The translations under genes were made by a program, and so were the position numbers. Positions 1,906-15,105 of a stretch of DNA of 16,233 nucleotides are shown here, in pieces. The first letter of the stretch is position 1, and the number at the start of each line of letters is the position of its first letter. Location of the stretch: positions 1 to 16,233 of the IMG/VR virus record IMGVR_UViG_3300035703_002363. One strand, given 5' to 3'. The notes under the pieces are model-generated. The model did not search any database. It was not told the DNA's origin and worked only from the letters and a program-made list of their open reading frames with translations. Source of the DNA: a virus.

Positions 1906-1972
1906 GTGGCCAGGGTGAACGATCTGTCAAGAACTCGCACATTGCACGGCGTGTCGCGGCAACTTTGCGCAC

Positions 1973-3457
1973 TTAGTAGACGCGGGCGGTTTCTGCCGGC
2001 GCTCCTCGGTGGTCGTAGAGCCAGATGCCGACGGCTGAGCCGATCGGGAAGATGATGGGGCCGGTCGATTCTGATCGTGAGAATCGAGTGAGGTCGCCGA
2101 CGCGCTTGAGCACGAGGTGGGCGAGGCCGAGGGTCATGGTGCGGGATCCATCGAGCTTGAGTTGGCGATCGCGGAACATGGTCACCCAGCCTTCGCAGCT
2201 GGTGCCGAAGTCTCGCGCGCCGACGGTGGTGATGGCTTCGTCGCCGAGGGTGCGGCGTAGTTGATCGGTGAGTCGTCGTGTTGCGCCGCCGTCATCGCCG
2301 CCGACGACGATGGGCGCGTGCTTGTGCACGAGGTCGACGATGTAGTCATGCATCCACATCGAGCCGGGCGCGACGTGCAGCACGCGGGTCACGGGTGCGT
2401 CGTCGATGTCGCGCCAGGTGGCAAACACGCCGCCGAGCTCATTGTCGGGCGCGATCTCGTAGGTGAGCGCGATCTCGGAGAGGCTCGGGATGCTCTCGGG
2501 GTCGCGGGTGTTGGCGGTGACCTCTTCGCTGCTGAACAGGGGGTCGGATGCTTCGAGCCAGACGTTGCAGAATGCACGCAGCCACGTCGCGCGCGAGACC
2601 TGCCCGCTGATCTCCATGAGCGCGTCGAGCGACATCGTGTGCCCGACTGCAGGGTGGAATGCGGCGATCGCGCGGCGGTCGTATGGGTCTGCGCCGTCGG
2701 GCAGTGCGGCCTCGAAGTAGGCGAGGCGCTGGTTGCTGCCGGGCTTGAGCACCGACTCGCGGCCACGCTCGACCCACTTGCGCATGAACGTCGAGCGGGC
2801 ATCGCCCGCGGTGGAGAGCAGCCATATCTGTCGCTGCCCTGCGAGGGTCACCTGAGCGGGAATGATGGCGCCCTCGAGTATCGCGTCGCCGAGGGCTTCG
2901 TCGAGTTCCCAGATTTCATCCATGCCGACGAGGGGCGGGGTCTCGCCGTGGAGGGCTGCGACGACGGGGGCGAATAGCTTGAGTGCTGAGCCGTTCGGGA
3001 ACAGGATGCCCTCGTCGCCTGCCGAGTATCGGTAGCGGAGCATGCTGTCGAGGGGCGAGTCCTGCACGAGTGAGACGAGGTCGCCGAATCGTGAGCGTGC
3101 GTCTTTGCCGGTTTGCGCCGTGTAGAACGTCTTGATGGCGGGCATCGTGATGCATCGGTCGAGCTGCACGGGCCCGTAGAGCGTGGTCTTGCCGGATTGG
3201 CGGGGAACGGTGACGAACACGATCTCGTAGACGAGCTCGCCGAACGAGCCGCGCTCGAGCGCGGTATCCCAGACTTGCCGCTGCCAGGGCATGCCGGGCT
3301 TGCCGATTCCGGCCGCGATCTTGGCCACTCTGCCGCCGTCGGTTCGGGCGCCGGCGTTGCGAGGGGTGGCGTATTTGAAGCCGCTCCACTGGATGCACTC
3401 GTCGTCGTGCCCGGGTTCGAGCACGCAGTCGTCGAGTGCGCAGCGTGGCACGGTCAC
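1973..3457 (-). CDS. terL: Terminase large subunit
   Basis: Trimmed from track ORF 1973..3988 to GTG 3457, which overlaps the upstream stop as GTGA (494 aa). Walker A motif VTVPRQSGKTT is present, followed by the ...LVGMDEIWE... Walker B region and a C-terminal nuclease-like half. The upstream extension is Arg/Pro-rich out-of-frame-type sequence overlapping TerS and HNH. Confidence 0.93.
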   Translation of the reverse strand: MTVPRCALDDCVLEPGHDDECIQWSGFKYATPRNAGARTDGGRVAKIAAGIGKPGMPWQRQVWDTALERGSFGELVYEIVFVTVPRQSGKTTLYGPVQLDRCITMPAIKTFYTAQTGKDARSRFGDLVSLVQDSPLDSMLRYRYSAGDEGILFPNGSALKLFAPVVAALHGETPPLVGMDEIWELDEALGDAILEGAIIPAQVTLAGQRQIWLLSTAGDARSTFMRKWVERGRESVLKPGSNQRLAYFEAALPDGADPYDRRAIAAFHPAVGHTMSLDALMEISGQVSRATWLRAFCNVWLEASDPLFSSEEVTANTRDPESIPSLSEIALTYEIAPDNELGGVFATWRDIDDAPVTRVLHVAPGSMWMHDYIVDLVHKHAPIVVGGDDGGATRRLTDQLRRTLGDEAITTVGARDFGTSCEGWVTMFRDRQLKLDGSRTMTLGLAHLVLKRVGDLTRFSRSESTGPIIFPIGSAVGIWLYDHRGAPAETARVY

Positions 3458-3777
3458 GCGCTGTCTTTCAGGCTGTCGACGAACGCATCGAACCGATCCA
3501 TGATGTCTTTGTCGGCGGGTGCGGGTAGTGCCATGAGGGTCTCGCGCAGCTGGGCGGCTGCCATGGCGGCGGCGGATGCTCGGCCGCGGCTGTTGCCGTG
3601 GGCGACGGCGTCGGCGAGCTCGAGCGCGAGTTGGGCCAGGCCAGCGTGCCGAGGTTGGAGCAGCTTGTCGTCGTGCAGGGCTTGGATCGTGGTGATGACG
3701 GCGTCGCGGAGGGCGCTTTGACGTGAGCCGAGTTCTAGGCCGTCGAGCATCGGCTGGTTCGGGTTGTCGGTCGTCAT
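3454..3777 (-). CDS. Putative terminase small subunit
   Basis: 107-aa helical protein immediately upstream of TerL and translationally coupled to it. Called from position and composition only. Confidence 0.5.
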   Translation of the reverse strand: MTTDNPNQPMLDGLELGSRQSALRDAVITTIQALHDDKLLQPRHAGLAQLALELADAVAHGNSRGRASAAAMAAAQLRETLMALPAPADKDIMDRFDAFVDSLKDSA

Positions 3778-3860
3778 CGTTTTCTCGTCTTGGTCGTTTT
3801 CGGGGTTTTTCTGGGCGGTGTGGGGAGAAATGGAAGGGGCTGCGCGCGGGTTTCCAGGGG
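3778..3860. other. Non-coding gap between HNH and TerS; candidate cos/packaging-site region
   Basis: The largest non-coding gap in the late region. It is locally T-tract rich (tttt 3780-3783, tttt 3797-3800, ttttt 3806-3810). In HNH-dependent cos phages the HNH gene sits at one genome end and terS at the other. Confidence 0.25.
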
Positions 3861-4163
3861 CTAGCGGCTAAAGAACGCGAGGCCGTCCTCCACGATGTGG
3901 TTGGCATCGGTGGCGTCGCGATTGCCTCGTGCGCTGTTGCATGAGCGGTGTGAGGGTCCGAGGTTGACGAGGTCGTAGACCGCGCCACCCTTGGAGCGGG
4001 GGATGATGTGGTCGGCGCTGTTCGACCCGGGCAGACCGCAGAGCCAGCACGTCGTGCCGTACTCGGCGAGTGTCATGCGCACGTACTGCTGAGCCTTCCG
4101 GCCACCCCACTTCTCTTCGGGTGCTTCGGGGTCTGCGTACCTGCCCGGGCCTCGGCGGATCAC
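3861..4163 (-). CDS. HNH endonuclease (terminase-associated type)
   Basis: 100 aa with CWLCG...ADHIIPRSKGG...NLGPSHRSCNSARGN (CxxC, DH, N and HxxCN elements of the HNH fold). GTG start overlaps the upstream stop as GTGA. Confidence 0.9.
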   Translation of the reverse strand: MIRRGPGRYADPEAPEEKWGGRKAQQYVRMTLAEYGTTCWLCGLPGSNSADHIIPRSKGGAVYDLVNLGPSHRSCNSARGNRDATDANHIVEDGLAFFSR

Positions 4164-4339
4164 AGTGCGTCGCCGCTTGCCCGTCGCCAGGTCGTGCCGC
4201 TCTCAGCGTCGAGGTGCTGGTCGTCATGCCCTGCGTGGAGTTGACAGGTGACGGTGCGACCTCGACGGAACGCGGTGGCGCCGCATGCTGTGAATGGCTT
4301 GGGCTTGGGCGGTGCCTTCGGCTTCGGCTTGGTGGTCAT
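4160..4339 (-). CDS. Small hypothetical protein (59 aa), Lys/Pro-rich N-terminus plus C-X12-C-X2-H-X2-H zinc-finger-like motif
   Basis: Below the track size cutoff. Manual translation: MTTKPKPKAPPKPKPFTACGATAFRRGRTVTCQLHAGHDDQHLDAESGTTWRRASGDAL. ATGA coupling at 4336-4339, an AAGGAAGGA SD upstream, and high GC3. Confidence 0.55.
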   Translation of the reverse strand: MTTKPKPKAPPKPKPFTACGATAFRRGRTVTCQLHAGHDDQHLDAESGTTWRRASGDAL

Positions 4340-4659
4340 GCTGGTGTTCCTTCCTTGGTTGAGCGGCGTGAGGCTCGGCGCTCGTGCACGATGCGATCGG
4401 CATGCTCGGCCATGGCTTCACGTTGCTCGGGGTGGGCGGCGAGGTAGTTCAGGGAGTTGGCCTTGACGATGACGAGGAACGCGATCGCCTGTTCGCCTGG
4501 GCTCATGCGCAGGTAGTCGCCGAGAATGTTGATGGCCTCGGTGTCGTATCGGCCTGGCTCGAGCGTTTCTTCCATCAGCTGCGCGGCGACGGCTCGTTGC
4601 AGGATCTTCTCTGTGCGGCTCTCGACCTCGGCGAGGTGCTGCGTGTGGTCGATGGTCAT
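4336..4659 (-). CDS. Hypothetical protein (107 aa)
   Basis: C-terminal part of track ORF 4336..4794, starting at MTIDHTQHLAEVESR... ATGA overlap with the upstream stop at 4656-4659. Confidence 0.6.
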   Translation of the reverse strand: MTIDHTQHLAEVESRTEKILQRAVAAQLMEETLEPGRYDTEAINILGDYLRMSPGEQAIAFLVIVKANSLNYLAAHPEQREAMAEHADRIVHERRASRRSTKEGTPA

Positions 4660-4886
4660 GCGGCTCGCACCTCGATGAGGCTTGTGATGCCAGCACGGGG
4701 CCAGGTCACGCCGCCGCCCTGGTGGTTGCCGACGTGCATGACGGGCAGGGTGCAGGTGACTCGGACGCTGGCCGTGATGCTGGTGATGCCGCATCGTGCT
4801 TTGCCGCGGCGGGCGTGTGGGGTGTCGAGTTCGGGCAGGTCGTCGCGGCTGTTGACGGCGGCGCGTGCGCGTTCGAGGTGGCTCAT
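4656..4886 (-). CDS. Hypothetical protein (76 aa)
   Basis: C-terminal part of track ORF 4656..5066, starting at MSHLERARAAVNSRDDLPEL... ATGA overlap at 4883-4886. Confidence 0.55.
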   Translation of the reverse strand: MSHLERARAAVNSRDDLPELDTPHARRGKARCGITSITASVRVTCTLPVMHVGNHQGGGVTWPRAGITSLIEVRAA

Positions 4887-5179
4887 GCTGCGGTGCCTTC
4901 CTGCTGGAGTTCCGGGGTGCGGATGAGGGTTGCTGTCACGAGTGCGTCGATCGCGGCGTGGTAGATCGCGTCGGCTGCGTCGATGGTGGGTTGGACCGCT
5001 GACATGGCGAGCGAGGTGGCCGGAATCTTGGCGAGGTTGCCGACGCTGATCGCGGCGGCTGCGCATTGCTGCGCGGCTCGTGTGAGGGCGGCGCGTCGTT
5101 CGGCCGGGTGGCGGCTGGCCTCGTCGATGAGTTCGGATGCGATGAAGCGCAGGCGGCTCGCGGGTGCGGTGATGTTCAT
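4883..5179 (-). CDS. Hypothetical protein (98 aa)
   Basis: Track ORF with ATGA coupling at both ends. Ala-rich helical sequence. Confidence 0.6.
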   Translation of the reverse strand: MNITAPASRLRFIASELIDEASRHPAERRAALTRAAQQCAAAAISVGNLAKIPATSLAMSAVQPTIDAADAIYHAAIDALVTATLIRTPELQQEGTAA

Positions 5180-5511
5180 GCGGCTGCCTCCTGGCTGCTC
5201 TTGTTGGTGATCTGGTGCCAGTGGTTGGCGACGGTCGAGCGAGAGACGCCGATGGTCACTGCGATCTCGACTTGGCTGTAGCCGAGTTCGGCGAGCTGGC
5301 GTGCGTAGCCCATGCGTTCGTCAGTCATGCGAACCCACGTGCGTCGTCGCTCGGGTGCAGTCGGCGGGGTGCTGGGGCGCTTGACGGACTCGATGGCTTT
5401 GGCTGCGATCAAGCCGCCGACATCCGTGCCCTGCTCTCGTGCGGGGCGCTCCCAGGCTCGGTAGACCGATGCGGGAATGCTCACCCTGACGGTGATCGTG
5501 TCCTCGGTCAT
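5176..5511 (-). CDS. DNA-binding protein, RHH-like N-terminus plus HTH C-terminus (possible Cro/early regulator)
   Basis: N-terminus ITVRVSIPASVYRAWERPAREQG resembles a ribbon-helix-helix strand and helix. C-terminus YARQLAELGYSQVEIAVTIGVSRSTVANHW is a clear helix-turn-helix. Confidence 0.65.
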   Translation of the reverse strand: MTEDTITVRVSIPASVYRAWERPAREQGTDVGGLIAAKAIESVKRPSTPPTAPERRRTWVRMTDERMGYARQLAELGYSQVEIAVTIGVSRSTVANHWHQITNKSSQEAAA

Positions 5512-6074
5512 GCGCTCACCCGCTCTCGAAGGTCAGCGCCGCAGTTCAGACAGCATCCGGTGTCGAGTCGCACGTGCTCGCCCGTGGGCGAGATACGTGC
5601 CGAGACGGGGCACTCGCGCGCGCGCGCGAGATGGTGAGGTTCTTTGTTAAGTCTTGTGGTTGGTTTAGTGGATGGTTCGGGTGTCGCTACCGACACCCCA
5701 CTCGCGTCGGATTCGACACCGGGTGTCGGATTCGACACCCCTCCTTCGAACAAGTTGAGACGAGCTGCAGAACGGTGACGGTGGTTCTTTGACCGGTCGC
5801 ACGTGGAGGGGCATTCGAGAATGACCCGATAGAGGTTTGGGCGGTGGCTGTCGGCGATTGAGCTGGGCCCGCCGCCTTGTAGCACGACCTCGATCTCGCG
5901 CAGTCGCACGAGAGTCTCGATGGCCTTCTGCACGTTGCGACGGGTGACGTTGGCGTATCGGGCAAGCGTGTCGATCGAAGGCCAAGCGCCACCGTCGCCG
6001 TCGTGGTTGGCGATGCCGAGCAACACGACCTTGGCGGTAGCAGTGGCTCGACTGTGGTGGAGGCACACGGTCAT
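5508..6074 (-). CDS. Winged-HTH DNA-binding protein, putative replication initiator (lambda O-like logic)
   Basis: Trimmed to ATG 6074 (188 aa). N-terminus AKVVLLGIANHDGDGGAWPSIDTLARYANVTRRNVQKAIETLVRLREIEVV...RPNLYRV is a wHTH of the type seen in phage/plasmid initiator-like proteins. A palindrome array and an AT-rich patch lie in the linker region. The C-terminus is Cys-rich (CPVS...CCLNC). Confidence 0.6.
   Translation of the reverse strand: MTVCLHHSRATATAKVVLLGIANHDGDGGAWPSIDTLARYANVTRRNVQKAIETLVRLREIEVVLQGGGPSSIADSHRPNLYRVILECPSTCDRSKNHRHRSAARLNLFEGGVSNPTPGVESDASGVSVATPEPSTKPTTRLNKEPHHLARARECPVSARISPTGEHVRLDTGCCLNCGADLRERVSA
5679..5740. repeat. Cluster of three related palindromic sites (iteron-like) inside the initiator-like gene
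   Basis: 5679-5698 reads GGGTGTCGctacCGACACCC. 5721-5740 reads GGGTGTCGgattCGACACCC. A degenerate copy lies at 5702-5720 (tcgcGTCGgattCGACACC). A 15-nt direct repeat gtcggattcgacacc occurs at 5706-5720 and 5725-5739. Confidence 0.85.
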
Positions 6075-6085
6075 GGATTCGACGC

Positions 6086-6202
6086 TCACGGCACGATCTG
6101 CCAGTTGATGAGGGCGAGCATCCAGAACACGGCGGCGATTGAGAACGCAGCCACGGTGAGAGTGCTGATGACGAGCGCCGGGTGAGGGGTCTTCTGCTTC
6201 AT
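6086..6202 (-). CDS. Small membrane peptide (38 aa, one TM helix), first ORF of the leftward operon
   Basis: Not in the track. Manual translation: MKQKTPHPALVISTLTVAAFSIAAVFWMLALINWQIVP. High GC3. The ATG sits 7 nt downstream of a candidate -10, so the transcript looks leaderless. Confidence 0.5.
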   Translation of the reverse strand: MKQKTPHPALVISTLTVAAFSIAAVFWMLALINWQIVP

Positions 6203-6290
6203 GCGGCCATGATGGCACATTTCACCACTCTGACAAATGCAGATTTGGCGGCGTGTTGTGCAGAGGGTGGCAATCTGCCAAACTTCTCAC
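6203..6290. promoter_or_regulatory. Divergent early/immunity control region with candidate promoters and a palindromic operator
   Basis: Non-coding and locally lower in GC. Leftward: TTGTCA (rc of 6231-6236), 16 nt, then CATCAT (rc of 6209-6214), 6 nt before ATG 6202. Rightward: TTGTGC 6256-6261, 18 nt, then AAACTT 6280-6285, 5 nt before ATG 6291. Palindrome TGGCAatcTGCCA at 6268-6280. Confidence 0.3.
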
Positions 6291-6611
6291 ATGACGATGA
6301 CAATGCTCCAATTCGAGACGCATGACTACGTTCGAAAGGCCGTCGAGGTCGCTGGGCTTAGTGCCGGCGACTTCGCGAGTGCGTTGGGGGTCTCTCGAAA
6401 CACCGTTAGCCGATGGCTGAACGGGCGAGCTCGCCCCAGTACCGCGCAGATGATCGCCATCTCGGTCGTGACGGGAGTGTCACTAGAATGGCTGACTCAA
6501 GGTGTGGCGCGCCCGGAGGGACTCGAACCCCCAACCTTCTGTTCTGTAGCCGACGACGACCTCGCGCTCGAGCTCGCCTTCCTCACCATCGTCGAGCCGG
6601 TGATGGCATGA
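6291..6611 (+). CDS. Cro/C1 (XRE)-type HTH repressor, full-length 'viral' form (106 aa; alternative start 6237)
   Basis: HTH motif LSAGDFASALGVSRNTVSRWLNGRARPSTAQMIAISVVTGVSLEWL. Transcribed divergently from the early operon. The 3' end contains the tRNA-like attP core, which encodes ...VARPEGLEPPTFCS... Confidence 0.8.
   Translation: MTMTMLQFETHDYVRKAVEVAGLSAGDFASALGVSRNTVSRWLNGRARPSTAQMIAISVVTGVSLEWLTQGVARPEGLEPPTFCSVADDDLALELAFLTIVEPVMA
6505..6549 (-). other. 3' fragment of a tRNA-Arg(ACG)-like gene; candidate attP common core
   Basis: Minus strand reads CTACAGA-ACAGA-AGGTT-GGGGG-TTCGAGT-CCCTC-CGGGCGC-G-CCA. That order is anticodon-loop-like, stem, variable loop, T arm with canonical TTCGAGT loop, acceptor 3' strand, discriminator and CCA. 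No matching 5' acceptor strand (GCGCCCG) lies upstream, so it is a fragment and not a gene. Confidence 0.75.
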
Positions 6612-6853
6612 CCTACATTCTGCCCGGCTTCCCCGACGAGAACGCTGACGGATGCCCCGACAACCTCATGCCCGACCCTGCCTGGCCGGACGGCGTGGGC
6701 TGGCCCTGCATCGAGATCGTCGTCACTCCTGGACCGCCGACCATCACCGTCGACTCACTGGCCGACACTGGGGCGGTTGAGGTCACTGGGGCGCTCCTGG
6801 GCGCGATCGTACTGATCTGGGCCGGGCTAGTGCTGCGAGGTCGACGCGCATGA
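6608..6853 (+). CDS. Small protein (81 aa) with C-terminal LAxTG-like motif, hydrophobic helix and basic tail
   Basis: Trimmed from track ORF 6413..6853 to ATG 6608 (ATGA overlap with repressor stop). Sequence: MTYILPGFPDENADGCPDN...TVDSLADTGAVEVTGALLGAIVLIWAGLVLRGRRA. Confidence 0.6.
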   Translation: MTYILPGFPDENADGCPDNLMPDPAWPDGVGWPCIEIVVTPGPPTITVDSLADTGAVEVTGALLGAIVLIWAGLVLRGRRA

Positions 6854-7332
6854 GCGTGCCGGCCGCTTTGCTCGATGCCGTGCCACGGCCTGGTCACCCG
6901 CACTATCGCCGCTCCGGTCACCAGCAAGCCCTGACCGACATCGCGCGCGACATTCGCGCACGAGTGCCGATCGCGGGCGAGCTCGCCGTCGATGCTGAGT
7001 GCCGCGCACGCCGCGAACTCGTCGACGAGGCGCTCGCCTTGCTCGGAGTGCAACTTGAGGCTAGAGAGTGGTGGACTCTTGTTTGCGAGACGCGGCCAGA
7101 CGATCGAATGCCGGTTTTCGCAGGCATTTGGGCCCACAGCATGGAAGAGGCCGTGATCGAAACCGTGCTCTGGCGCTCCGAGTTCGATGGCCGGCACATC
7201 GCCACCATCGCGCCCGACGAGAACTGCGAGCACCACGAGCAGCTTTCGGCAGCTCGACGCAAGTTCGAGCTCGCTGACGAGCGCAACACGCGACGCGTCG
7301 CCGAGATTGAGGCGAGCGTGACCCTGTGGTGA
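6850..7332 (+). CDS. Hypothetical protein (160 aa)
   Basis: Track ORF with ATGA coupling at 6850-6853. Good GC3 and acidic/helical composition. The antisense 257-aa ORF is judged a shadow. Confidence 0.6.
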   Translation: MSVPAALLDAVPRPGHPHYRRSGHQQALTDIARDIRARVPIAGELAVDAECRARRELVDEALALLGVQLEAREWWTLVCETRPDDRMPVFAGIWAHSMEEAVIETVLWRSEFDGRHIATIAPDENCEHHEQLSAARRKFELADERNTRRVAEIEASVTLW

Positions 7333-7372
7333 GCATCCGCAGTTCACACGATTCCGAGAGGAGCACGGATTG

Positions 7373-7540
7373 ATGAGCATTGACATCGTGGAAGTCGCTG
7401 GCTACCAGTGGCAGTGCAGCGACTGCAATGACTCGGGCCACATCGAAGTCAGCCCCGAGTTCTCCCAAGAGAGCGCACAGGAGCACCGCTGTTCGCCCAC
7501 TTCCAGCACCACGACGACAGGAGAGCAGCCCAATGGATGA
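7373..7540 (+). CDS. Small hypothetical protein (55 aa) with CxxC...H...C pattern
   Basis: Not in the track. GAGAGGAG SD lies 8 nt upstream. Sequence: MSIDIVEVAGYQWQCSDCNDSGHIEVSPEFSQESAQEHRCSPTSSTTTTGEQPNG. Confidence 0.5.
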   Translation: MSIDIVEVAGYQWQCSDCNDSGHIEVSPEFSQESAQEHRCSPTSSTTTTGEQPNG

Positions 7541-7811
7541 CGACCCGTACCGCCCGTACCCCTGGTGGACTCGCGTGTGGCCGCTGAGCCGCATCTACTT
7601 CGCGGGCTGGCAGCGAGGCGAGGAGGCCGGGATTGCGCGCGGTCGGTTCCAGATGGGCGACCCAGCATCGCCCGATTTCAGCAAAGAACCGGAGCCCGGA
7701 ACGTTAGACGCTCGGGGCTCCGGTGAGATGTCTTTGCGAGACCCCGTAAGCATACCAAATACTCCTGATTCCGGGGCGGTGTCGGGGGTTCCCGATACAA
7801 ACTCACCATGA
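7533..7811 (+). CDS. Hypothetical protein (92 aa), Trp-rich N-terminus and disordered C-terminus (possible RDF, unproven)
   Basis: Trimmed from track ORF 7380..7811 to ATG 7533 (AGGAGAG SD, ATGGATGA overlap). Sequence begins MDDDPYRPYPWWTRVWPLSRIYFAGWQRGEE... It ends in an ATGA overlap with the int start. Confidence 0.5.
   Translation: MDDDPYRPYPWWTRVWPLSRIYFAGWQRGEEAGIARGRFQMGDPASPDFSKEPEPGTLDARGSGEMSLRDPVSIPNTPDSGAVSGVPDTNSP
7688..7724 (+). promoter_or_regulatory. 10-bp perfect inverted repeat (stem-loop or protein-binding site) about 85 nt upstream of int
   Basis: ACCGGAGCCC at 7688-7697, a 17-nt spacer, then GGGCTCCGGT at 7715-7724. A lower-GC stretch follows with a weak sigma70-like pair: TTGCGA 7734-7739, 18 nt, then AATACT. 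Confidence 0.4.
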
Positions 7812-8620
7812 CTCTTTCGCAATCATGGTGCCAGGCGATCGACGAATACCTCGAGCACGCCACCGCTGCGGGAGCACCGCAGACAACCCGCTACACACGA
7901 GAGCAACACCTGCAACACCTAGCCCGACGCGTCGAGGCCGAACCGTGGGCGCTCACCGGGGCTGAACTCGTCACCTATGCCGCTGCGCAGACTTGGGCCG
8001 CTGAGACTCGACGCGGGCGCCGCTCGACCTTCCTGTCGTTCTACCGGTGGGCGATCGCAACAGGCCGCACCGACACCAACCCTGCGCTCTCCCTGCCCCG
8101 CGTGAAGGCCGCAATGGGCAAGGCTCGACCCACGCCCGAACTCGTCTACCGTGAGGCCGTCGCCGCGGGTGACGTGCGCGCCCGCCTCATCCTGAGACTC
8201 GCCGCCGAGGTCGGGCTGCGCCGTTCCGAGATCGCGCGCATCCACTCACGAGACCTCATGCAAGACCTCGTCGGCTGGTCGCTCGTCGTGCACGGCAAGG
8301 GAGACCGTGAGCGCATCGTGCCGCTCCCTGACGGCCTCGCACGAGTGCTGCGCGCGCTCCCCTCGGGGTTCGCGTTCCCGGGCGACGACGGCGGGCACCT
8401 GTCCCCGCGCTGGGTGGGCAAGATCGCCACCCGACTACTGCCCGGCGACTTCACCCTCCACACGTTGCGCCACCGGTTCGCGACGCTCGCCTATCAAGTC
8501 GACCGTGACGTGTTCGTGGTGCAAGAGCTGCTCGGCCATTCGAGCCCGGCGACGACGAGGCGCTACGTGCAAACCCAGCACGAGCACCTACGCCGCACGG
8601 TGGTCGCTGTCGCCGACTAG
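7808..8620 (+). CDS. int: Tyrosine integrase (short XerC/D-like; no obvious arm-binding N-terminal domain)
   Basis: 270 aa. SAM-like core-binding N-terminus (...FLSFYRWAIATGRTDTNPA). Catalytic set present: R (GLRRSEI), K (VHGKGDRER), HxxR (HTLRHRFAT), H (LLGHSS) and Y (TTRRYV). Confidence 0.93.
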   Translation: MTLSQSWCQAIDEYLEHATAAGAPQTTRYTREQHLQHLARRVEAEPWALTGAELVTYAAAQTWAAETRRGRRSTFLSFYRWAIATGRTDTNPALSLPRVKAAMGKARPTPELVYREAVAAGDVRARLILRLAAEVGLRRSEIARIHSRDLMQDLVGWSLVVHGKGDRERIVPLPDGLARVLRALPSGFAFPGDDGGHLSPRWVGKIATRLLPGDFTLHTLRHRFATLAYQVDRDVFVVQELLGHSSPATTRRYVQTQHEHLRRTVVAVAD

Positions 8621-8859
8621 CGGTTGTCGGGTACGAGGTAGCCGAGCACGAAAGCCACGACGAGAGCGAACGACGTCTCGACTGTCACGGGCACGTCGAT
8701 CGCGAAACCGCTCTCTACGCCCCACACGGCGATCGTTGCGACGGCTGCGCCGAGCGCGCCCGCTGTCACCTTCGGGCTCACGTCGTTCCACTCGCGGCGA
8801 GGGTCGTAGACGAGCTCGACGGTGGGCGTGAACTCTGCTTCTTGCTGGGTGTCACTCAT
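8617..8859 (-). CDS. Membrane protein with two TM helices (80 aa), holin-like second lysis component
   Basis: Trimmed to ATG 8859 (8-nt overlap ATGAGTGA with the upstream gene). Sequence: MSDTQQEAEF...VTAGALGAAVATIAVWGV...TSFALVVAFVLGYLVPDNR. Last gene of the lysis cassette. Confidence 0.55.
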   Translation of the reverse strand: MSDTQQEAEFTPTVELVYDPRREWNDVSPKVTAGALGAAVATIAVWGVESGFAIDVPVTVETSFALVVAFVLGYLVPDNR

Positions 8860-9094
8860 GAGTGTGCTCCTGTTCTGGTTCGATTCCGAGGTGTCGCTCG
8901 ATTCGGTCGAATCGGCGGTGGTACTTCTCATCTCGCGCGTCGAGCTCGTCGCGCAGGTTCGTCTTGTGCGAGTTCTTCACCTGGTAAACGGCCTCTTTTG
9001 CGTGGCGGCGCGTCGACAGCAAGATGGGCACGAGACCGAGGGTGAGCAGGGCTGTGGCGCTGTTGATGAGGCCGACGATGACTGTTTCGCTCAT
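8852..9094 (-). CDS. Holin-like protein (80 aa; one N-terminal TM helix, highly charged C-terminus)
   Basis: Sequence MSETVIVGLINSATALLTLGLVPILLSTRRH followed by a charged tail. ATGA-coupled to the endolysin stop. Confidence 0.6.
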   Translation of the reverse strand: MSETVIVGLINSATALLTLGLVPILLSTRRHAKEAVYQVKNSHKTNLRDELDARDEKYHRRFDRIERHLGIEPEQEHTHE

Positions 9095-9816
9095 GCCTTC
9101 ATCCGCTGCGCGATCTCGTCGGCAACCTGCTCGGCTGAGGCGCCACCCGAACCGCCGTTCACAGCAAGAGCCAGGTGCGCGTCGCGGATGCTCTTGAACA
9201 CCTCAGGACCGACCGGGCGGTGTGGTCCGTACAGGCGCGACATTTGCACGGCAAACTCGACCTCGCTGGCAGGTGTCGGAATGCGACGCTCATAGAGCTG
9301 CACCGCACCTGACGGCCAGACCGTCATGCATACTGTGCCGTTCACTGCCTCGCCCTTGGCGTTGCGGGTTGATGTGTCTAGAAAGTTCTGCGGTTGCATT
9401 TCTTCCTCCTCGTCGGGTGTTGCCGAAATGTTGAACGCCAAAGTGAAATAGGGGGCTGGGTTCACCCGCGCGCCGTCGACCCACACCTCAACGTGAAGGT
9501 GCACGCCCTCGACCTGTGCGCCGGTGGCGCCCATTTCGCCGAGATAGGTTCGACCGAGCTCGACGGTGTCGCCGGTCTTGACGGCGATCGTGTTGAAGTG
9601 TGTGAGTCGTAGCGTGGCGGTCGGCGTGAAGATGCGGATGAAGTTGCCCACGAGGTCGTGCCATCCGACCATGACGGTGCCCGATGCCGGCGCGTACACC
9701 TTGCGCGACTCGGCGGCGTTCGCCTTGAGCCATCCGTAATCGACCCCATGGTGAAAGCCTCGCTTGCGTTGCCCCCACGGTGAGGTGATCGGCCCGGGGA
9801 CTGGGTGCATGAACAT
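9091..9816 (-). CDS. Endolysin, M23 (LytM-type) metallopeptidase with uncharacterised C-terminal domain
   Basis: HxxxD motif (GFHHGVDYG) and HxH motif (GVHLHVEVW) with typical M23 spacing. Sits after the tail genes and before the holin-like genes. Confidence 0.88.
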   Translation of the reverse strand: MFMHPVPGPITSPWGQRKRGFHHGVDYGWLKANAAESRKVYAPASGTVMVGWHDLVGNFIRIFTPTATLRLTHFNTIAVKTGDTVELGRTYLGEMGATGAQVEGVHLHVEVWVDGARVNPAPYFTLAFNISATPDEEEEMQPQNFLDTSTRNAKGEAVNGTVCMTVWPSGAVQLYERRIPTPASEVEFAVQMSRLYGPHRPVGPEVFKSIRDAHLALAVNGGSGGASAEQVADEIAQRMKA

Positions 9817-9837
9817 TAGCGAGGCTCGCTCTCAGGG

Positions 9838-10464
9838 CTACGCATAGCGGGTTGCCTTGACTGTGTAGGTGCCCGTCACGGTGGTCACTCCTGAGCAGGT
9901 GAATCGGATGCCGTCGAAAGACGCTGCCGAACGGTGACGCAAAGCCGAGAACACGGCGCCCGAGTTCGCTGTTGCGTCGAACGCGCGGCGGCGCACTTCG
10001 GCGATCGTGCGACGGGTTGCGTTGAGGCCGAAAAGTGTGAGGGTGATGTGTCGATCGGTTCGGGAGCCCGGCTGATCTAGTCCCCAGTTCGCCGCCGCCA
10101 ACGCAGAAGTGGCTACCGCGGTGGAGACTGAGCCAACGAGGTCTTGCCGGTCGTAGTTGCTCGTCGCGTTGGGCGTCGTGCCGCTGAGCAGCTGCGCGGT
10201 GATGGTGTTTGCTGTGCTTGCGGTCGGCAAGTCGAGCACGATCTCGTACTCGTCAAACCCAGTCAGACCTTCGAGCGAGATGATGTTCTGCGCTGTGATC
10301 GTGCCCGAAGCCAGAGCGACCATGGCGTGGTTAGCCTTCGCGCCGATGACCTCGGAGATCTCTTCTAGACCGAGGTTCATGTATTCGGGCCAGTCGAGGC
10401 CTACGGCGGTCGCTTCGGTGTAGCGACGAATCCCGTTAGCGTCGGGGCCGCTAAGTTCTCCCAT
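9838..10464 (-). CDS. Minor tail protein / candidate receptor-binding protein (208 aa)
   Basis: Last tail-module ORF, with an AGGAG SD. Ser/Thr/Ala-rich beta-type composition. Called from position only. Confidence 0.55.
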   Translation of the reverse strand: MGELSGPDANGIRRYTEATAVGLDWPEYMNLGLEEISEVIGAKANHAMVALASGTITAQNIISLEGLTGFDEYEIVLDLPTASTANTITAQLLSGTTPNATSNYDRQDLVGSVSTAVATSALAAANWGLDQPGSRTDRHITLTLFGLNATRRTIAEVRRRAFDATANSGAVFSALRHRSAASFDGIRFTCSGVTTVTGTYTVKATRYA

Positions 10465-10477
10465 GGTTGTGTGCTCC

Positions 10478-11656
10478 TTATGCCCAGATATTCATTTCGA
10501 ACCGGCCTGACAGTTGCCAGGTGATCGCGTCGATGATGGTGGTCACTGCGTCGTCGCCGGGCAGTGTGTAAGTGATCGACGACCACGGCATGACCGAGTA
10601 GTCGGGTGGTGTCGTGAGTCGCACGGGCGAGAGGTCGAGCCCTGCGCGTGTGGCGTAGCTGGCTGCTGGCGTGGGAAAGCCCAGCGGCGGCGGGGCGTCG
10701 GTGGGGGGCCATCCGATGAGCGGCGCTGGAACGTCGATGAGGCGGGCGACGACGTTGGTGAACGATATGCCGCCGATGGATGTGGGCCACACGGGGCGCG
10801 CGTTCGGGTCGGTCTGGCTGCCACTCCACCGCACGAGGGTCTTTGTAGCGAGATCGCGAGCGTATTCGTAGTCGATGAGGTTCACGCCATCTTCGACGAT
10901 GATGTCGCCGGGGGTCGGCGGGTTATCTTCGGCGTGAATGAGTGCCCAGTCACCGCGCGAGTAAAGGCGCTGCGCGACGCTGACGAGAATGCCAACGACC
11001 GCGGCCCAGACGTTGGCCAACGGTTCGACATTGAGCGGCGCGCCGACTCCTGCGCGGCGGGCTTGGGTAATGAGTACGGGCTCGTCGAGGTCTGGGTATC
11101 CCCCGGCGACGTGGTGCCCGACTGTGGTGGCTGAGAAGAATGCGAAGCGCACGAGGGCCTGTGTGTGGTCGCCCGGGATTGCGCGCGCGATCGCGTCATT
11201 GTTGCCGTCGAGGTCTGGATTGAGCGCGTCGAGATAGAGTGCTTCGGCTGATGCGACATCGAGGGTCCATGAGTCGCGCCGTTCGCGCACTTTCGTGACC
11301 ATGAGCTCGAGGCGGCGGCCGGTGCCCGCTCGTGGTGGGTCGTTCCATGACCCTGCCGCGATCAGGGCGGGCATGTCGGCGGGCAAGATGCCGTTGAAGT
11401 CCTCGGTGAGTGTGCCGGTTTCGTCGCCGAACAGTGTGGTGAGGTCTCGGCTTATTGAGATGTCACCGAACCGCTGGGTGAGTTCCACGATGACTCGTTT
11501 GCCGGGGCCCATGGCCACCGATGGCGGGGCGATCTCGATGCGCCCTTGGATGTGTGGAGTCCATGCGCGGTCGGCGGTGATCGTGGAGCCGTCGAGCACG
11601 GTGAGGCGGTCACCGGTAGATGTGTAGACGCGGGCCTCGGGGTCGTTGACGGGCAT
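10478..11656 (-). CDS. Minor tail protein (392 aa; Tal/baseplate position)
   Basis: Trimmed from track ORF 10478..12223 to ATG 11656 (TAATG overlap). Sequence begins MPVNDPEARVYTSTGDRLTVLDG... It is the second ORF after the tape measure. Confidence 0.6.
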   Translation of the reverse strand: MPVNDPEARVYTSTGDRLTVLDGSTITADRAWTPHIQGRIEIAPPSVAMGPGKRVIVELTQRFGDISISRDLTTLFGDETGTLTEDFNGILPADMPALIAAGSWNDPPRAGTGRRLELMVTKVRERRDSWTLDVASAEALYLDALNPDLDGNNDAIARAIPGDHTQALVRFAFFSATTVGHHVAGGYPDLDEPVLITQARRAGVGAPLNVEPLANVWAAVVGILVSVAQRLYSRGDWALIHAEDNPPTPGDIIVEDGVNLIDYEYARDLATKTLVRWSGSQTDPNARPVWPTSIGGISFTNVVARLIDVPAPLIGWPPTDAPPPLGFPTPAASYATRAGLDLSPVRLTTPPDYSVMPWSSITYTLPGDDAVTTIIDAITWQLSGRFEMNIWA

Positions 11657-12018
11657 TAGCTGACCTCCCTGAATGGGATGCGCACGACCCAGTAGCGGCG
11701 GTCGCGTTGCAGCTCGACGTCGAGCGAACCGCCGAATACGGCAAAGGTGAACTCGAGCGTCGTGCGGGCGGGGTAGGTGATGGCGAACAGTTCTGGACCG
11801 CCGAGCATGGCTCGGGCGGCTTCGGCTGCAGCCTCGGTGCTGTAGAGCGCGGCTAGGGTGCCCTGGCGGCTCTTGGCTGCGCTCAGGTTCACCCATAGGT
11901 CTGTGGCGCCGGGAATGTCGTGCACGATGGTGCCGAGTTCTTGGCTTGTGCGCCACGGCTGCAAGAGAACGGGGTTGGTGACTCCGCTCGTGATAACGCC
12001 GGTGATTGCGATGGTCAC
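11656..12018 (-). CDS. Small tail protein (120 aa) in the distal-tail-protein position
   Basis: GTG start with GTGA overlap on the tape-measure stop. Called from position only. Confidence 0.5.
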   Translation of the reverse strand: MTIAITGVITSGVTNPVLLQPWRTSQELGTIVHDIPGATDLWVNLSAAKSRQGTLAALYSTEAAAEAARAMLGGPELFAITYPARTTLEFTFAVFGGSLDVELQRDRRYWVVRIPFREVS

Positions 12019-13121
12019 GTGCCCACTTCCCTTCCCTCACGAGTGACGAGGCGAGCGCGCACGACGAGCGGATTGCGGTCGAAACTGCCTTGTGTGCTGC
12101 GTCTGATGGCTTCGGTGTCGGGTTCTGCGAGTTCCGTGCGGATGGTGATCGGGGCGCGGCCAGCGGCCTCGCTGTAGCGGCGCCCCAAGGCATCCCAGCG
12201 CTGTTCTTCGACTGATCGCACACGAGCCACCTCGTCGCGCTGTTCGGCGCTCTGCTCGACGATGAGGTCCTGATATTGGCTTGCGGCGTCGCGGTTTTCT
12301 GCGTGGGTGTCGCTAAGGCCGATGAGTTTGTCGCGCACGGTGTCGATCGCGATCACTGCGGGCGACCATGACTCACCACCTCGCGCCGAGTCGAGCTCGT
12401 GGACGAGGTCGCCGCTGGCGCTGGTTGCTTGCGCGATCGCGTACTCGAGCGCATCGGCGTCGCCCGCGAGCGCGCGAATATAGGTGTTCGTGTCGACGCC
12501 GATCTTTGCGGCGTCGGCGGCGGCGGCGTCTCGTTTGCTTGAGTCGAAGAGGATCTCGGCGGCGGCGGCAATGATGGTGGCCTCGTCGAGGTAGTTGCGG
12601 CCTTCTTCGGCTGCGGCCTTGTATGCCTCGGCGAGTGACTCCTTTAGTTCTTTGGCACTGTCGAGTTGATTGACGATCGTCGTGGTGACGAGGCCAAGCC
12701 CTGCGGCGCCTGCGGCGACTGCGGCAATGGCGGGGATGCCTCGGAGACCACCGACGAGACCACCGAGGGTGCTTTGCGCTGCGTCGGCGATCGATTCGAA
12801 TGAGCCGTCGAAGCTAGAGAACATCTCGGCGGCGTTTTGTTTGGCCTCGTTGGTGACCTCGTCGAGTTGGCTCTCGACGCGATCGCCAGACCTCTTGAAG
12901 TTGCGGACCATCTTGTCGCCCGCTTCATCGCTCTCGCGGTCGACGACCTTGGTTAGGTCTTTAAAGCTGCGCTCTAGTTTCTCGGTGGCCTTGTCGCCGT
13001 CGCGGGCGACATCGTCGAGGCTGTCGGAGACTTGGTCGAGGGCTTCGCCGATGTCGTCGGTGCCTTTGAGAAACCGGCGAATGTCAGAGATGAAGTTGAT
13101 GACGATACCTTTACCGGCCAT
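12015..13121 (-). CDS. Tape measure protein (short, 368 aa)
   Basis: Trimmed from track ORF 12015..13514 to ATG 13121 (ATGA overlap). Long helical, Ala/Asp/Glu-rich sequence with a Gly-rich hydrophobic segment LGGLVGGLRGIPAIAAVAAGAAGLGLVTTTIV, typical of tape measure proteins. Confidence 0.78.
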   Translation of the reverse strand: MAGKGIVINFISDIRRFLKGTDDIGEALDQVSDSLDDVARDGDKATEKLERSFKDLTKVVDRESDEAGDKMVRNFKRSGDRVESQLDEVTNEAKQNAAEMFSSFDGSFESIADAAQSTLGGLVGGLRGIPAIAAVAAGAAGLGLVTTTIVNQLDSAKELKESLAEAYKAAAEEGRNYLDEATIIAAAAEILFDSSKRDAAAADAAKIGVDTNTYIRALAGDADALEYAIAQATSASGDLVHELDSARGGESWSPAVIAIDTVRDKLIGLSDTHAENRDAASQYQDLIVEQSAEQRDEVARVRSVEEQRWDALGRRYSEAAGRAPITIRTELAEPDTEAIRRSTQGSFDRNPLVVRARLVTREGREVGT

Positions 13122-13630
13122 CAGCTGCTCCCTTCTGCATCGGCGAGGTCTCGGAGGGTGTCGACGATTGCGACGACGGATCCGGCCACGTAGGCGCGGC
13201 CCACTTGGCTGGCTGCGTCGAATGCGATGCGGCCTTGTTTCACTCGTCCGGGGAATTGGCGGTTGAGTGTTCGGGTGACGGTGTGGGTGCCGCCGTTCGG
13301 GTTGCGGCGGGTGTAGCGGGCTCGGAAGTTGCGGGCTCCGAACTCGATACCAGGCCAGTCCTGAGCGGGTACGAACCCGCCCCGTAGGGCTCGGCGGCTG
13401 GTGGCGGCGCGGACGCCGATGCCGTTGGTCGACACCGAGGCGCCCGCGCCGCGCAGCATGACGAGGCGTTCGAAACCACCGCTCTTGGTTCTGCTCTCGA
13501 GTTCTCGACGCCACCGTGGGGTGACTTCCTGCCGTGCGGCTGCGGTCATCGCGCTGCGCACGGTTGAGGGGGCACGCTTCATCGCCAGGATGGTTGCCTG
13601 GAGTGGAGCGTTGTCGAGGATGGAGAGCAT
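13121..13630 (-). CDS. HK97 gp10-like tail-completion/neck-type protein in the slot usually held by tail assembly chaperones
   Basis: 169 aa. N-terminus LQATILAMKRAPSTVRSAMTAAARQEV and an IEFGARN (EFG) motif resemble the HK97 gp10 family as I recall it. No slippery sequence was seen. Confidence 0.4.
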   Translation of the reverse strand: MLSILDNAPLQATILAMKRAPSTVRSAMTAAARQEVTPRWRRELESRTKSGGFERLVMLRGAGASVSTNGIGVRAATSRRALRGGFVPAQDWPGIEFGARNFRARYTRRNPNGGTHTVTRTLNRQFPGRVKQGRIAFDAASQVGRAYVAGSVVAIVDTLRDLADAEGSS

Positions 13631-13636
13631 CGGGCG

Positions 13637-14302: not shown

Positions 14303-14313
14303 GGTGCTTTCTC

Positions 14314-15029: not shown

Positions 15030-15055
15030 GATGTCCTCCTCGTGGTGTGTGGGGT

Positions 15056-15090: not shown

Positions 15091-15105
15091 GGTGAGAGGT
15101 GGCTG

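Follow-up and report, generated by a model that had tools for sequence, protein, structure and literature searches.

In mycobacteriophage BPs and the other Cluster G phages (int gp32, rep gp33, cro gp34), whose genomes are 41-42 kb, the phage attachment site attP lies in the 3′ part of the repressor gene rep, the 3′ end of a tRNA-Arg gene is targeted, and rep and int share one strand with the other operon divergent (Broussard et al. 2013; PMC3694055, PMC4557955). The bacterial attachment site (attB) of BPs is the tRNA-Arg gene Msmeg_6349 (PMC3029335), in agreement with what an earlier, sequence-only reading of the DNA studied here had stated. The published gp33^136 and gp33^103 forms (PMC4557955) equal the length and the PPTF end of gp33 of phage Angel, a 136-aa protein in which residue 103 is the last of PPTF. 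Integration-dependent immunity has also been described in the temperate Gordonia Cluster CW phages GMA5, GRU3, Jeanie and McGonagall (17.1-17.7 kb), which have tiny siphoviral genomes of mostly virion genes, an attP core of ~37 bp inside rep, a tRNA-Lys target and no ORF between int and rep, or one, as in GMA5 (PMC5559632). In the small Bifidobacterium prophages Bb423phi2 and 689b-1, int lies at attL and rep at attR, and in-silico excision gives the repressor a C-terminal extension (PMC6109161). The sequence-only reading had considered such a switch to be new for a minimal non-mycobacterial phage, a claim that these two reports overturn.

The DNA analysed here (the window, positions 1 to 16,233) is the complete circular genome of a small siphovirus-type phage with a unit length of 16,106 bp; it is taken as circular because positions 1-127 are repeated exactly at 16107-16233 as a 127-bp terminal direct repeat. 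The same genome is present as Logan contig SRR11566518_114461 (16,136 bp), which is opened at about window position 6507; this length equals 16,106 + 30 bp, and we read the extra 30 bp as a k-1 overlap with k=31. The GC content is 65.8%, and the host would be a high-GC actinobacterium different from that of BPs and from the host genus of the Cluster CW phages. The portal protein is 37-39% identical to the portals of 15-17 kb Curtobacterium, Arthrobacter, Microbacterium and Gordonia phages, with 17 matching Gordonia phage records counted without checking each record. A scan of genome collections found no close relative of the window phage. Neither a host attB nor a prophage identical to this phage turned up; the nearest integrated relative has a Rep that is 73% identical.

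The rep gene (6291..6611, plus strand) encodes the immunity repressor in its viral form, which has 106 aa when started at MTMTM (other candidate ATG codons are at 6237, 6297 and 6303). Rep matches HTH_3 (1.8e-12), HTH_31 and Phage_CI_repr (4e-9) in Pfam and phrog_2328 'transcriptional repressor' (3.6e-19) in PHROG. The HTH domain spans residues ~10-70, which AF2 models as a fold of five helices (pLDDT 85-92); pLDDT is below 50 at residues 81-106, and the C-terminal tail is predicted to be disordered. Rep is 33% identical to the BPs-type gp33 of Angel (E 3e-11), and it matches annotated repressors of the Cluster P mycobacteriophages Purky and Phayonce and of the Gordonia phages McGonagall and Jeanie (37% identity to their immunity repressors), the latter two being Cluster CW phages by name (PMC5559632).

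The minus strand of 6505-6549 reads CTACAGAACAGAAGGTTGGGGGTTCGAGTCCCTCCGGGCGCGCCA and consists of a T arm (GGGGG/TTCGAGT/CCCTC), the acceptor 3′ strand CGGGCGC, the discriminator G and CCA. No 5′ tRNA half lies beside it, ARAGORN called no tRNA in the window, as had been foretold, and Rfam gave only a tRNA-clan match below threshold, as expected for half a tRNA. The attP common core (6505..6541, minus strand) corresponds to the 3′-terminal 37 nt of tRNA-Arg(ACG), positions 40-76 including CCA, and agrees in every nucleotide (37/37) with the tRNA-Arg(ACG) found at attR of relative L002, which bears out the proposed tRNA-Arg 3′ fragment lacking a 5′ half. The fragment also aligns with the ARAGORN-called tRNA-Arg(acg) of relative L009, and a match of this extent is not due to chance. 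The fragment lies in frame within the last quarter of rep, where the frame encodes ...VARPEGLEPPTFCSVA... and the plus strand of the core encodes ARPEGLEPPTF. Window Rep and Angel gp33 have RPEG(F/L)EPPTFC in common, and in Cluster G, as in the window, the T-arm frame RPEG(F/L)EPPTF is followed by TGT where the host has TGA. Relatives found as complete prophages have the equivalent block, 36 bp long, as their attL/attR direct repeat. Between the window and relative L150, the core block has no substitution, while the upstream part has 17 synonymous changes. A compensatory T-stem change in L151 and L152 indicates that the core follows host tRNA variants.

Beyond the core, the tRNA similarity continues in degenerate form into the anticodon arm (6542..6549, minus strand), with 6/7 of the positions 6542-6548 matching the host in the attP/attR alignment. 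At base 6542 the phage has T and the host has A, giving TGT (Cys84) and TGA (stop), respectively. The sequence-only reading was right about this Cys codon but placed it at 6541-6543; the codon occupies 6540-6542, with 6542 as the deciding base. The continuation TGT TCT GTA GCC GAC is nucleotide-identical across the window, L150, L151 and L152.

In the integrated relative P0003/L002 (rep 73% identical), rep encodes exactly 83 aa, ends with ...PPTF and is followed by TGA TCC GTA GTC AGA TGC TCT A and by the tRNA-Arg anticodon and D arms. The host anticodon-arm sequence given in the sequence-only reading (...CTACGGATCAGAAGGT...) exactly matches the integrated relatives. In L009, the rep stop codon lies within the ARAGORN-called tRNA-Arg(acg). 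Both junctions are present in two complete prophages, each flanked by a 36-bp attL/attR repeat: int lies 115-180 bp inward of attL, and the rep at attR is truncated; in one the intact tRNA is at attR only, and in the other the contig ends directly after TGA. In-silico excision of these prophages restores the tails ...WSVVSALPQAA and ...GRRVA. The predicted TGT-to-TGA change, with the rep stop at attR directly after ...PPTF, is therefore seen in P0003, in L009 and in both complete prophages. The 24-mer core occurs 115 times in viral contigs, and the base after TTCTG is A in 75/75 copies from host tRNAs or attR, while 38 copies from free genomes or attL have G or T there; the proposal that the phage departs from the tRNA at exactly the base that keeps its ORF open thus extends to the family. 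In the free forms the codon at the TGA position is always TGT or TGG, and in two free forms the stop-deciding base is the sole difference from the host anticodon arm. An integrase homologue lies downstream on the same strand in 31/32 evaluable free or attL copies, and the viral-contig scan yielded dozens more 14-19 kb examples of the system. Taken together, these results show the anatomy of the locus, its homology to the cassettes of BPs, Cluster P and Cluster CW, and, in integrated relatives, truncation of rep at the codon of Cys84.

The closest isolated phage for the cassette is Curtobacterium phage Barebow (PQ868957, 18.3 kb). Its gene 19, labelled only as an HTH protein in the record, holds the same tRNA-Arg-derived segment (43 bp, 95% identical) with the continuation TGT TCT GTA GCC, and a Barebow-like prophage is integrated exactly as predicted; one of the two complete prophages is 79-92% identical to Barebow in nucleotide sequence. 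The acceptor-stem core is GCGCTCG in Barebow and GCGCCCG in the window, so the host tRNA variants differ. Unlike in the window, only 65 bp separate the adjacent rep and int of Barebow, which also has a small divergent HTH (gene 20); elsewhere in the genome the two phages have no nucleotide similarity. The Bifidobacterium prophages belong to a different host phylum branch and are likened to the window by organisation, not by sequence. Lambda-type switches likewise combine a tyrosine integrase and an attB of tRNA type or similar with a CI-like HTH repressor that diverges from the early lytic operon, but they contain cI, cro, cII and xis, and their attP lies in non-coding DNA next to int, whereas attP of the window interrupts the repressor ORF. 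No xis, cII or cIII homologue was recognised in the window.

The tyrosine integrase gene int (7808..8620, plus strand; PF00589 2.1e-19, phrog_1) lies downstream of rep on the same strand, so that the architecture proposed earlier, an attP core in frame within rep followed by an integrase, holds. The ORF is intact, with the PF00589 match covering residues 120-259. Int has 270 aa (398 are annotated in Angel) and, unlike lambda-type integrases, is too short for an N-terminal arm-binding domain. Over 99% of its length, Int shares 46-47% identity with gene 32 of Cluster G (the BPs group); it is 57% identical to Barebow gp18, 47% to Int of Gordonia phage UmaThurman and 92% to the L151 integrase. Unlike in Cluster G, rep and int are separated by four ORFs (1.2 kb). 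The first, o81 (6608..6853, plus strand), has a start codon that overlaps the rep stop (ATGA) and encodes 81 aa with a C-terminal hydrophobic segment that by eye resembles a membrane helix; it is 84% identical to the post-rep ORF of L151 and is also present in L150. The others, o160 (6850-7332), the Cys-rich o56 (7370/7373-7540) and o92 (7533-7811), occupy a variable cargo slot (6850..7811, plus strand). None of the four matched a family in Pfam, PHROG or PADLOC. In L151 the slot holds four unrelated ORFs, while rep, o81 and int stay 80-92% identical. Within 5900-8900, the only terminator-like hairpin is on the minus strand (7830-7804), and no internal plus-strand promoter was found with a sigma-70 consensus that may not suit an actinobacterial genome.

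The control region (6203..6290) that separates rep from the operon running leftward, presumably the lytic one, carries one P_R-like and one weak P_rep-like promoter together with inverted repeats that resemble operators (GCAGATT/AATCTGC and TTTGGC/GCCAAA), and it is kept in L150, L151, L152 and L002. On the minus strand, the promoter-like TTGTCA-16-CATCAT (6236..6209) is followed at 6 nt by the ATG at 6202; on the plus strand, TTGTGC (6256-6261)-17-CAAACT (6279-6284) was seen by eye 6 nt upstream of the ATG at 6291. Since the boxes lie 6 nt from both ATG codons, both transcripts are probably leaderless. Unlike in BPs, the divergent genes start with a 38-aa hydrophobic peptide (6086..6202, minus strand; MKQKTPHPALVISTLTVAAFSIAAVFWMLALINWQIVP), probably a membrane peptide and called at the corresponding place in L151 and L152, and an HTH_36 protein (5508..6074, minus strand; PF13730 3.2e-10) of 188 aa (ATG 6074) or 193 aa (GTG 6089). 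The HTH_36 gene sits at the expected Cro-like position and is conserved in L150 and L152; a small Cro-like HTH gene adjoining rep on the opposite strand is absent.

These features make it likely that the window phage uses a BPs-type integration-dependent immunity switch. While the genome is free, rep, o81, the three cargo ORFs and int would be transcribed as one unit, from left to right, by a promoter immediately preceding rep, and the viral 106-aa Rep would bear a flexible tail of 23 codons (6540..6611 with the stop, plus strand; CSVADDDLALELAFLTIVEPVMA). The small integrase would recombine attP with the 3′ end of a tRNA-Arg gene. Phage-host identity ends at 6541, and therefore any crossover would bring the host A to 6542, convert Cys84 (TGT) to TGA and rebuild the intact tRNA at attR. 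The prophage repressor would then have 83 aa with the whole HTH domain retained, truncated at the residue homologous to that in BPs (83 of 106; 103 of 136 in BPs); the sequence-only reading had counted both the 83 aa and the 23 residues lost correctly. The tail, present only in the viral form, would be left behind at attL together with o81, the cargo ORFs and int, ~16 kb from the rep promoter; that int and the four ORFs part from this promoter had also been proposed, and it follows from the site geometry. By homology to BPs, the short form would be stable and active as the immunity repressor, and the long form would be inactive, its tail directing it to proteolysis, so that lysogeny would depend on integration. 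The rep-to-int operon, the operators and the instability of the long form are inferred, and it is from homology that the 106-aa and 83-aa forms are expected to differ in activity and stability.

It is unlikely that the overlap of attP with the rep 3′ end, which is itself real, lacks a regulatory role in this phage, with both forms stable and active, the decision made elsewhere and the tail a neutral read-through. An ssrA-like -AA tag is reported for BPs-type systems, and tags of this sort can be stabilised with residues such as a terminal Asp. The C-terminal degradation determinant proposed for the window phage is not evident: Rep ends in -EPVMA and Int in -VAVAD, and neither C-terminus is clearly ssrA-like, unlike in the BPs type. 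Between the window and the 91%-identical L150, the tail has 3 synonymous and 7 non-synonymous changes, compared with 17 and 2 in the HTH part; such a fast-evolving tail would fit a tag and would equally fit a dispensable extension. Family tail lengths (8-75 codons) are also close to the estimate for random open frames at 66% GC, and the in vitro DNA binding of BPs gp33^103 resembles that of gp33^136 (PMC4557955), which means that binding need not be blocked by the tail. However, the stop-creating base is replaced in 38/38 free or attL copies, which implies selection for reading on, and the -AA ending, although missing from the window tail, is strongly enriched across the family (17/36 distinct tails, with Ala at 12.7% of tail residues). 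Moreover, the tail has been shown to matter in a homologous cassette, and close relatives of the window phage retain the motif ...(A/L)xIVE(P/H)... in the tail.

Also improbable is an integration-dependent switch whose tail inactivates Rep by a route other than ssrA/ClpXP, through another degron and protease or interference with oligomerisation, with the P_rep-linked cargo ORFs part of the establishment programme. The non-canonical C-terminus of Rep would fit this, as would the hydrophobic LAF(L/Y/W)x(I)VE(P) conserved in the window, P0001 and P0004 (similar in L130, L039 and L101), a weak AF2 helix at residues 89-99 and the conserved o81 overlapping the rep stop; BPs gp33^103 is a tetramer (PMC4557955), which makes oligomerisation a plausible target. 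In contrast, the helix is low-confidence (pLDDT <50), overall tail conservation is poor, and neither experiment nor family data point to another mechanism; Angel gp33 ends in -DKAS and is yet called ssrA-like in the literature, so -VMA may be a tolerated variant. That the tRNA fragment is a relic of a former integration site, in a phage that is now effectively lytic or extrachromosomal, is scarcely credible. Two assemblies gave a circular genome and the exact phage was not found as a prophage, which would fit this reading, but the core keeps its full identity to a functional tRNA-Arg 3′ end amid many flanking synonymous changes, the integrase ORF is intact and conserved in L151, and the relative with 73% identity has integrated precisely here.

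Taken together, the window phage appears to be a small-genome temperate actinobacteriophage with a BPs-type integration-dependent immunity cassette, which departs from the canon in its four ORFs between rep and int, in lacking a clear ssrA-like tag and in lacking an adjacent Cro-like gene. The type of switch itself is already known from mycobacteriophage BPs and other small phages.

The minus strand of 6505-6549 had been read as the 3′ part of a tRNA, and this reading holds: the variable loop, the T arm, the acceptor strand CGGGCGC, the discriminator G and CCA are all present, and ARAGORN gives no intact tRNA in the window, as expected. The Rfam search of 6200-6900 returned just a sub-threshold match to the tRNA-Sec model (15.9 bits), which is uninformative for half a tRNA. 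The fragment lies inside rep (6291-6611, plus strand), which encodes an HTH_3/Phage_CI_repr protein with a PHROG match to 'transcriptional repressor', and codes for …VARPEGLEPPTFCSVA… in the rep frame. The attP common core (6505-6541, minus strand) is identical to the 3′ end of tRNA-Arg(ACG) at 37/37 positions and, in the rep frame, spans codons 72-84 of 106, so that the attP core is found within rep near its 3′ end, as in the BPs type of integration-dependent immunity. A tyrosine integrase of 270 aa (Int, 7808-8620) is found 3′ of rep on the same strand, as also proposed in the sequence-only reading.

The window is identical over 6505-6541 to the tRNA on the contig of P0003, a homologue of the window repressor, and departs from it at 6542. 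Since the identity between phage and host ends at 6541, the prophage must carry TGA wherever in the core the crossover takes place. It follows from the sequence that integration would shorten the window rep by changing TGT to TGA at 6540-6542, with HTH residues 10-70 kept. This Cys codon had earlier been placed at 6541-6543, which is off by one base; the critical base is 6542. AlphaFold2 predicts a confident five-helix HTH at residues ~10-70 of Rep and gives pLDDT <50 for residues 81-106, so the truncation would take away a flexible tail only. L150, a 91%-identical relative from run SRR32481702, differs from the window by 17 synonymous and 2 non-synonymous changes in the HTH part and by 3 and 7, respectively, in the tail, with no change in the core. 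A folded domain in the tail was rejected because of the low pLDDT and the high share of non-synonymous changes.

The predicted truncation is seen in integrated relatives. Five full-length proteins came up in the homologue search with Rep, each with …(A/V)RPE(G/R)LE(P/L)PTFCSV…, as did P0003, a protein of 83 aa that is 73% identical to the window Rep and whose last residues are exactly …PPTF. The contig of P0003 reads …CCA ACC TTC TGA TCC GTA GTC AGA TGC TCT A, the reverse complement of the anticodon arm and D arm of a tRNA-Arg(ACG), and the TGA stop that had been foreseen after …PPTF is present at this attR-type junction. At another locus (L009), the rep stop falls inside a tRNA-Arg(acg) called by ARAGORN. 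Two viral contigs hold complete prophages bounded by 36-bp attL/attR direct repeats; int is placed 115-180 bp inside attL, and rep is truncated at attR. In one of them an intact tRNA-Arg is present at attR alone, and the other contig stops straight after TGA. In-silico excision of these two prophages gives longer repressors, …WSVVSALPQAA and …GRRVA, and one of the two has 79-92% nucleotide identity to Curtobacterium phage Barebow. A shorter prophage repressor that keeps its DNA-binding domain, as in the BPs type, is thus found in P0003/L002, L009 and the two attL/attR prophages. An integrated copy of exactly the window phage was not found in viral contigs, the genome collection or metagenomes. 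Its expected host target would be a tRNA-Arg(ACG) with the 3′ end CAGAAGGTTGGGGGTTCGAGTCCCTCCGGGCGCGCCA and T at position 39; on the rep side of the prophage …CCAACCTTCTG would join ATCCGTAGTCAGATGCTC, and on the int side the flank downstream of the tRNA would join …TTCTGTTCTGTAGCCGAC.

The core itself also varies among relatives. L151 (582-971) and L152 (2449-2763) carry a paired T-stem change, GGGAG…CTCTC in place of GGGGG…CCCTC, and their core codons are GAG AGA CTC GAA CTC CCA. Such a compensatory pair is expected of a phage copy that keeps in step with a working tRNA variant in the host, which indicates that the core in these two loci would follow a different host tRNA-Arg allele. Four relatives have exactly the same nucleotides in the 5 codons 3′ of the core, and Barebow has the first four of these codons, which suggests a constraint at the DNA level, probably core-type binding by the integrase. 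The BPs type has no xis/RDF, and its integrase lacks the arm-binding domain and arm-type sites. Int of the window is only 270 aa long, and a search for its arm-type sites around the core gave only short scattered repeats, none of them convincing.

We found the same arrangement across a family of viral contigs. An exact search of viral contigs for GGGACTCGAACCCCYAACCTTCTG gave 115 occurrences in 113 stretches, and ~45 of the 80 contigs among the matches listed are 14-19 kb long. The base after TTCTG is A (TGA) in 75 occurrences, which are host tRNA or attR; it is G (TGG) in 30 and T (TGT) in 8, which are free or attL, and C in 2 unrelated sequences. In two free forms, this base is the sole mismatch to the host anticodon arm. 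An integrase homologue (41-87% identical) is found 3′ of the core on the same strand in 31/32 free or attL copies whose sequence extends far enough, at an offset of 87-1,226 bp compared to 1,268 bp in the window, and about one third of the family members have some insertion between rep and int. The final residues are -AA in 17 of 36 distinct tails and -AS in 3 more, while Ala makes up only 12.7% of the tail residues, and as motifs the -AA-rich endings match the ssrA-like tags reported for such systems. Repressor relatives L025 and L026 in the metagenome scan use tRNA-Lys likewise, and other tRNA fragments are found in the rep of L012-L017 and L027, the last of which is another free form.

Several further loci were noted alongside this family. 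On ~60-kb IMG/VR prophage contigs (L013-L017, ~10200-10360), a related repressor reads in frame through a tRNA-derived piece, …CARRDSNPKPSV…, and its tail ends -EPAAA, which points to the same switch design in large genomes too. A second, unrelated protein family with …QNP(R/D)RWIAP(T/S)GAAAR(P/S)KGLEPPTF… (L003/L040, L051, L065, L081, L096, L109, L116, L140) shares the tRNA-Arg core, translated in the frame that rep uses, and also alternates TGA with TGG/TGT, which suggests that the attP-in-ORF arrangement may be coupled to different regulators. In L005-L008 (IMG/VR, 16.5-16.9 kb), repressor homologues that are ~45% identical end in -LVAA, -SLAA, -ALAA or -GAAA; their rep has no tRNA-like piece and has a GC-rich hairpin in its 3′ part (e.g. 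GAACCCCCGGCGATCGATATCGACGGGGGTT), ~150-260 nt beyond position 10001 or 1638 of the locus. This hairpin may be the attP for a non-tRNA target in the same kind of switch.

Both proteins of the cassette are homologous to characterized members of the BPs type. Int aligns over 99% of its length at 46-47% identity with gene 32 of the Cluster G mycobacteriophages, to which BPs, Angel and Liefie belong, and is 47% identical to the Int of Gordonia phage UmaThurman, whose attB is reported to be a tRNA-Arg (PMC5559632). Rep is 33% identical to gp33 of Angel, a BPs-group phage (E 3e-11), and its other matches include proteins annotated as immunity repressors in Purky and Phayonce, two Cluster P mycobacteriophages, and in the Gordonia phages McGonagall and Jeanie. 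Angel gp33 has 136 aa, reads …VRPEGFEPPTFCLGA…, and its PPTF ends at residue 103; these lengths, 136 and 103 aa, are those published for BPs gp33 in its viral form and its prophage form (PMC4557955), and BPs integrates at the tRNA-Arg Msmeg_6349 (PMC3029335). The window phage and BPs have in common the target tRNA, the T-arm reading frame and the truncation codon. The window cassette is thus homologous to the BPs cassette. The stability and immunity that we attribute to the window phage are taken by homology from BPs (PMC3694055, PMC4557955): Rep106, the free form, would be unstable or inactive through its tail, Rep83, the form in the prophage, would be the active immunity repressor, and Int alone would carry out integration and excision. 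If only the short form is active, lysogeny would require integration.

Three features set the window apart from BPs. First, int is adjacent to rep in the BPs-type canon and is co-transcribed with it from P_rep, whereas in the window four ORFs (o81, o160, o56 and o92; 1,197 bp) with overlapping or closely spaced starts lie between them; GMA5, with one extra ORF between int and rep (PMC5559632), is a precedent for insertion in this interval. In this interval the promoter/terminator scan detected neither a promoter nor a terminator on the plus strand. The start of o81 (6608-6853) overlaps the rep stop, and its product is conserved with a hydrophobic C-terminal segment. L151 is 80-92% identical to the window in rep, o81 and int, while the interval that follows o81 holds three ORFs in the window (6850-7811) and four unrelated ORFs in L151 (1210-2237). 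The presence of unlike ORFs between conserved o81 and int defines a variable cargo slot. None of the four window ORFs has a family match in Pfam, PHROGs or PADLOC, and a recognizable defence system or excisionase among them was dropped as a candidate for that reason. No Pfam or PHROG match to an excisionase was found among the ORFs of 6608-7811, where the small ORFs could hide an RDF. In the slot of L151, the ORF immediately 5′ of int encodes an HTH protein (phrog_664), a candidate excisionase-like factor.

Second, the window Rep and Int end in -EPVMA and -VAVAD, in which no clear ssrA-like tag is seen. Close relatives of Rep end in -HVDA, -PAHV and -GDAA, and Angel gp33 ends in -DKAS, which shows that the motif at the tail end is loose. 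The full Int ending, -RRTVVAVAD, is the same in L151 and has no -AA-type ending, and Int ends in -MMAAA in UmaThurman and -EAIAS in Barebow; judged by motif, the C-terminal degradation signal of BPs-type integrases appears to be lacking in the window Int. Third, a divergent Cro-like gene over a control region of ~200 bp is a BPs-type feature, and no obvious Cro-like gene lies beside the window rep. The divergent control region is 88 bp (6203-6290), is conserved among relatives, and has a leftward promoter-like site as well as the inverted repeats GCAGATT/AATCTGC and TTTGGC/GCCAAA, which are candidate operators; by eye, a weak rightward promoter lies just before the rep ATG, and both divergent transcripts look leaderless. 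The first gene of the divergent, presumed lytic operon (6086-6202, minus strand) encodes a conserved 38-aa hydrophobic, probably membrane peptide that is not Cro-like, the second (5508-6074, minus strand) encodes an HTH_36 protein of 188 aa, and a 111-aa HTH protein is encoded further on in the leftward operon; there is no obvious Cro among these three. These departures in the interval ORFs, the C-termini and Cro do not contradict the mechanism. In a further reading, this sub-lineage would have a variation not described for BPs-type systems, in which o81, a putative membrane ORF, and the cargo are expressed from the rep promoter only when the phage is unintegrated, and are cut off as the repressor is activated, and in which the Rep tail inactivates without an ssrA-like end, possibly via the hydrophobic LAFxxIVEP motif as another degron or an inhibitory segment; we consider this combined proposal unlikely.

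The window carries an exact terminal direct repeat of 127 bp (1-127 = 16107-16233), which makes it a circularly closed assembly with a unit of 16,106 bp. A second copy of this genome is a Logan contig of 16,136 bp from run SRR11566518, whose ends fall at ~6507 of the window, at the att core; the arbitrary break of a circular contig explains this equally well, and the break was therefore rejected as a sign of host reads in that run. The ORF map is compact and of siphovirus type (portal, terminase, HNH, M23 peptidase lysin, TIG-domain tail protein), with a GC content of 65.8%. The portal is 37-39% identical to its counterparts in Curtobacterium phage Root and in the Maggie group of Arthrobacter phages, it also has matches in Microbacterium and Gordonia phages, and the matched phages are 15-17 kb. 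Like other small-genome actinobacteriophages, the window phage falls in the ~14-18 kb range, has mostly virion genes, and has a related portal and terminase; the small unit, layout and related portals thus place it among these known phages, which we take to include the Arthrobacter AN, Microbacterium EE, Gordonia CW and Rhodococcus RRH1 groups. The host would be a high-GC actinobacterium. A scan of the genome collection with a 5-sequence profile of the Rep N-terminus gave only an unrelated Bacillota HTH protein, with no close relative and no host attB, and the metagenome scan with the same profile gave no nearer integrated relative than those already found.

In a megablast of the whole window against phage records, the sole match was the 43-bp core in Barebow, so no close sequenced relative is deposited. 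Barebow is the sole deposited phage with the window's core, which lies in its HTH gene 19 beside the tyrosine integrase gene 18. GenBank labels gene 19 (L001 15296-15697) just 'helix-turn-helix DNA binding protein'; it has every feature of an integration-dependent immunity repressor. A Barebow-like prophage, IMGVR_UViG_3300048856_000014, lies in a tRNA-Arg and has the truncated form of rep.

The sequence-only reading held that this architecture was undescribed in a minimal non-mycobacterial phage. Integration-dependent immunity is found in about half of the tyrosine-integrase Gordonia phages with an identifiable attP core, in the temperate Cluster CW Gordonia phages of 17.1-17.7 kb (PMC5559632), in small Bifidobacterium prophages (PMC6109161), and in Streptomyces phages and 'prophages of various bacteria'. 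The claim is incorrect given these reports, since Cluster CW and the Bifidobacterium prophages are already known minimal cases, and what is new is modest: the variable slot that separates rep from int, and the non-canonical C-termini. The window phage leaves the understanding of the BPs-type mechanism unchanged, and provides a clean, checkable case in which site-specific recombination edits a repressor gene, and extends the BPs-type cassette, its tRNA-Arg target and truncation codon unaltered, to a 16-kb phage from outside Mycobacterium and Gordonia. The family scan suggests that the attP-in-rep design is common in metagenomes among actinobacterial phages and prophages of 14-19 kb, and the rule that TGG or TGT marks free forms and TGA marks integrated forms after …CCAACCTTC is useful for prophage annotation and host assignment.
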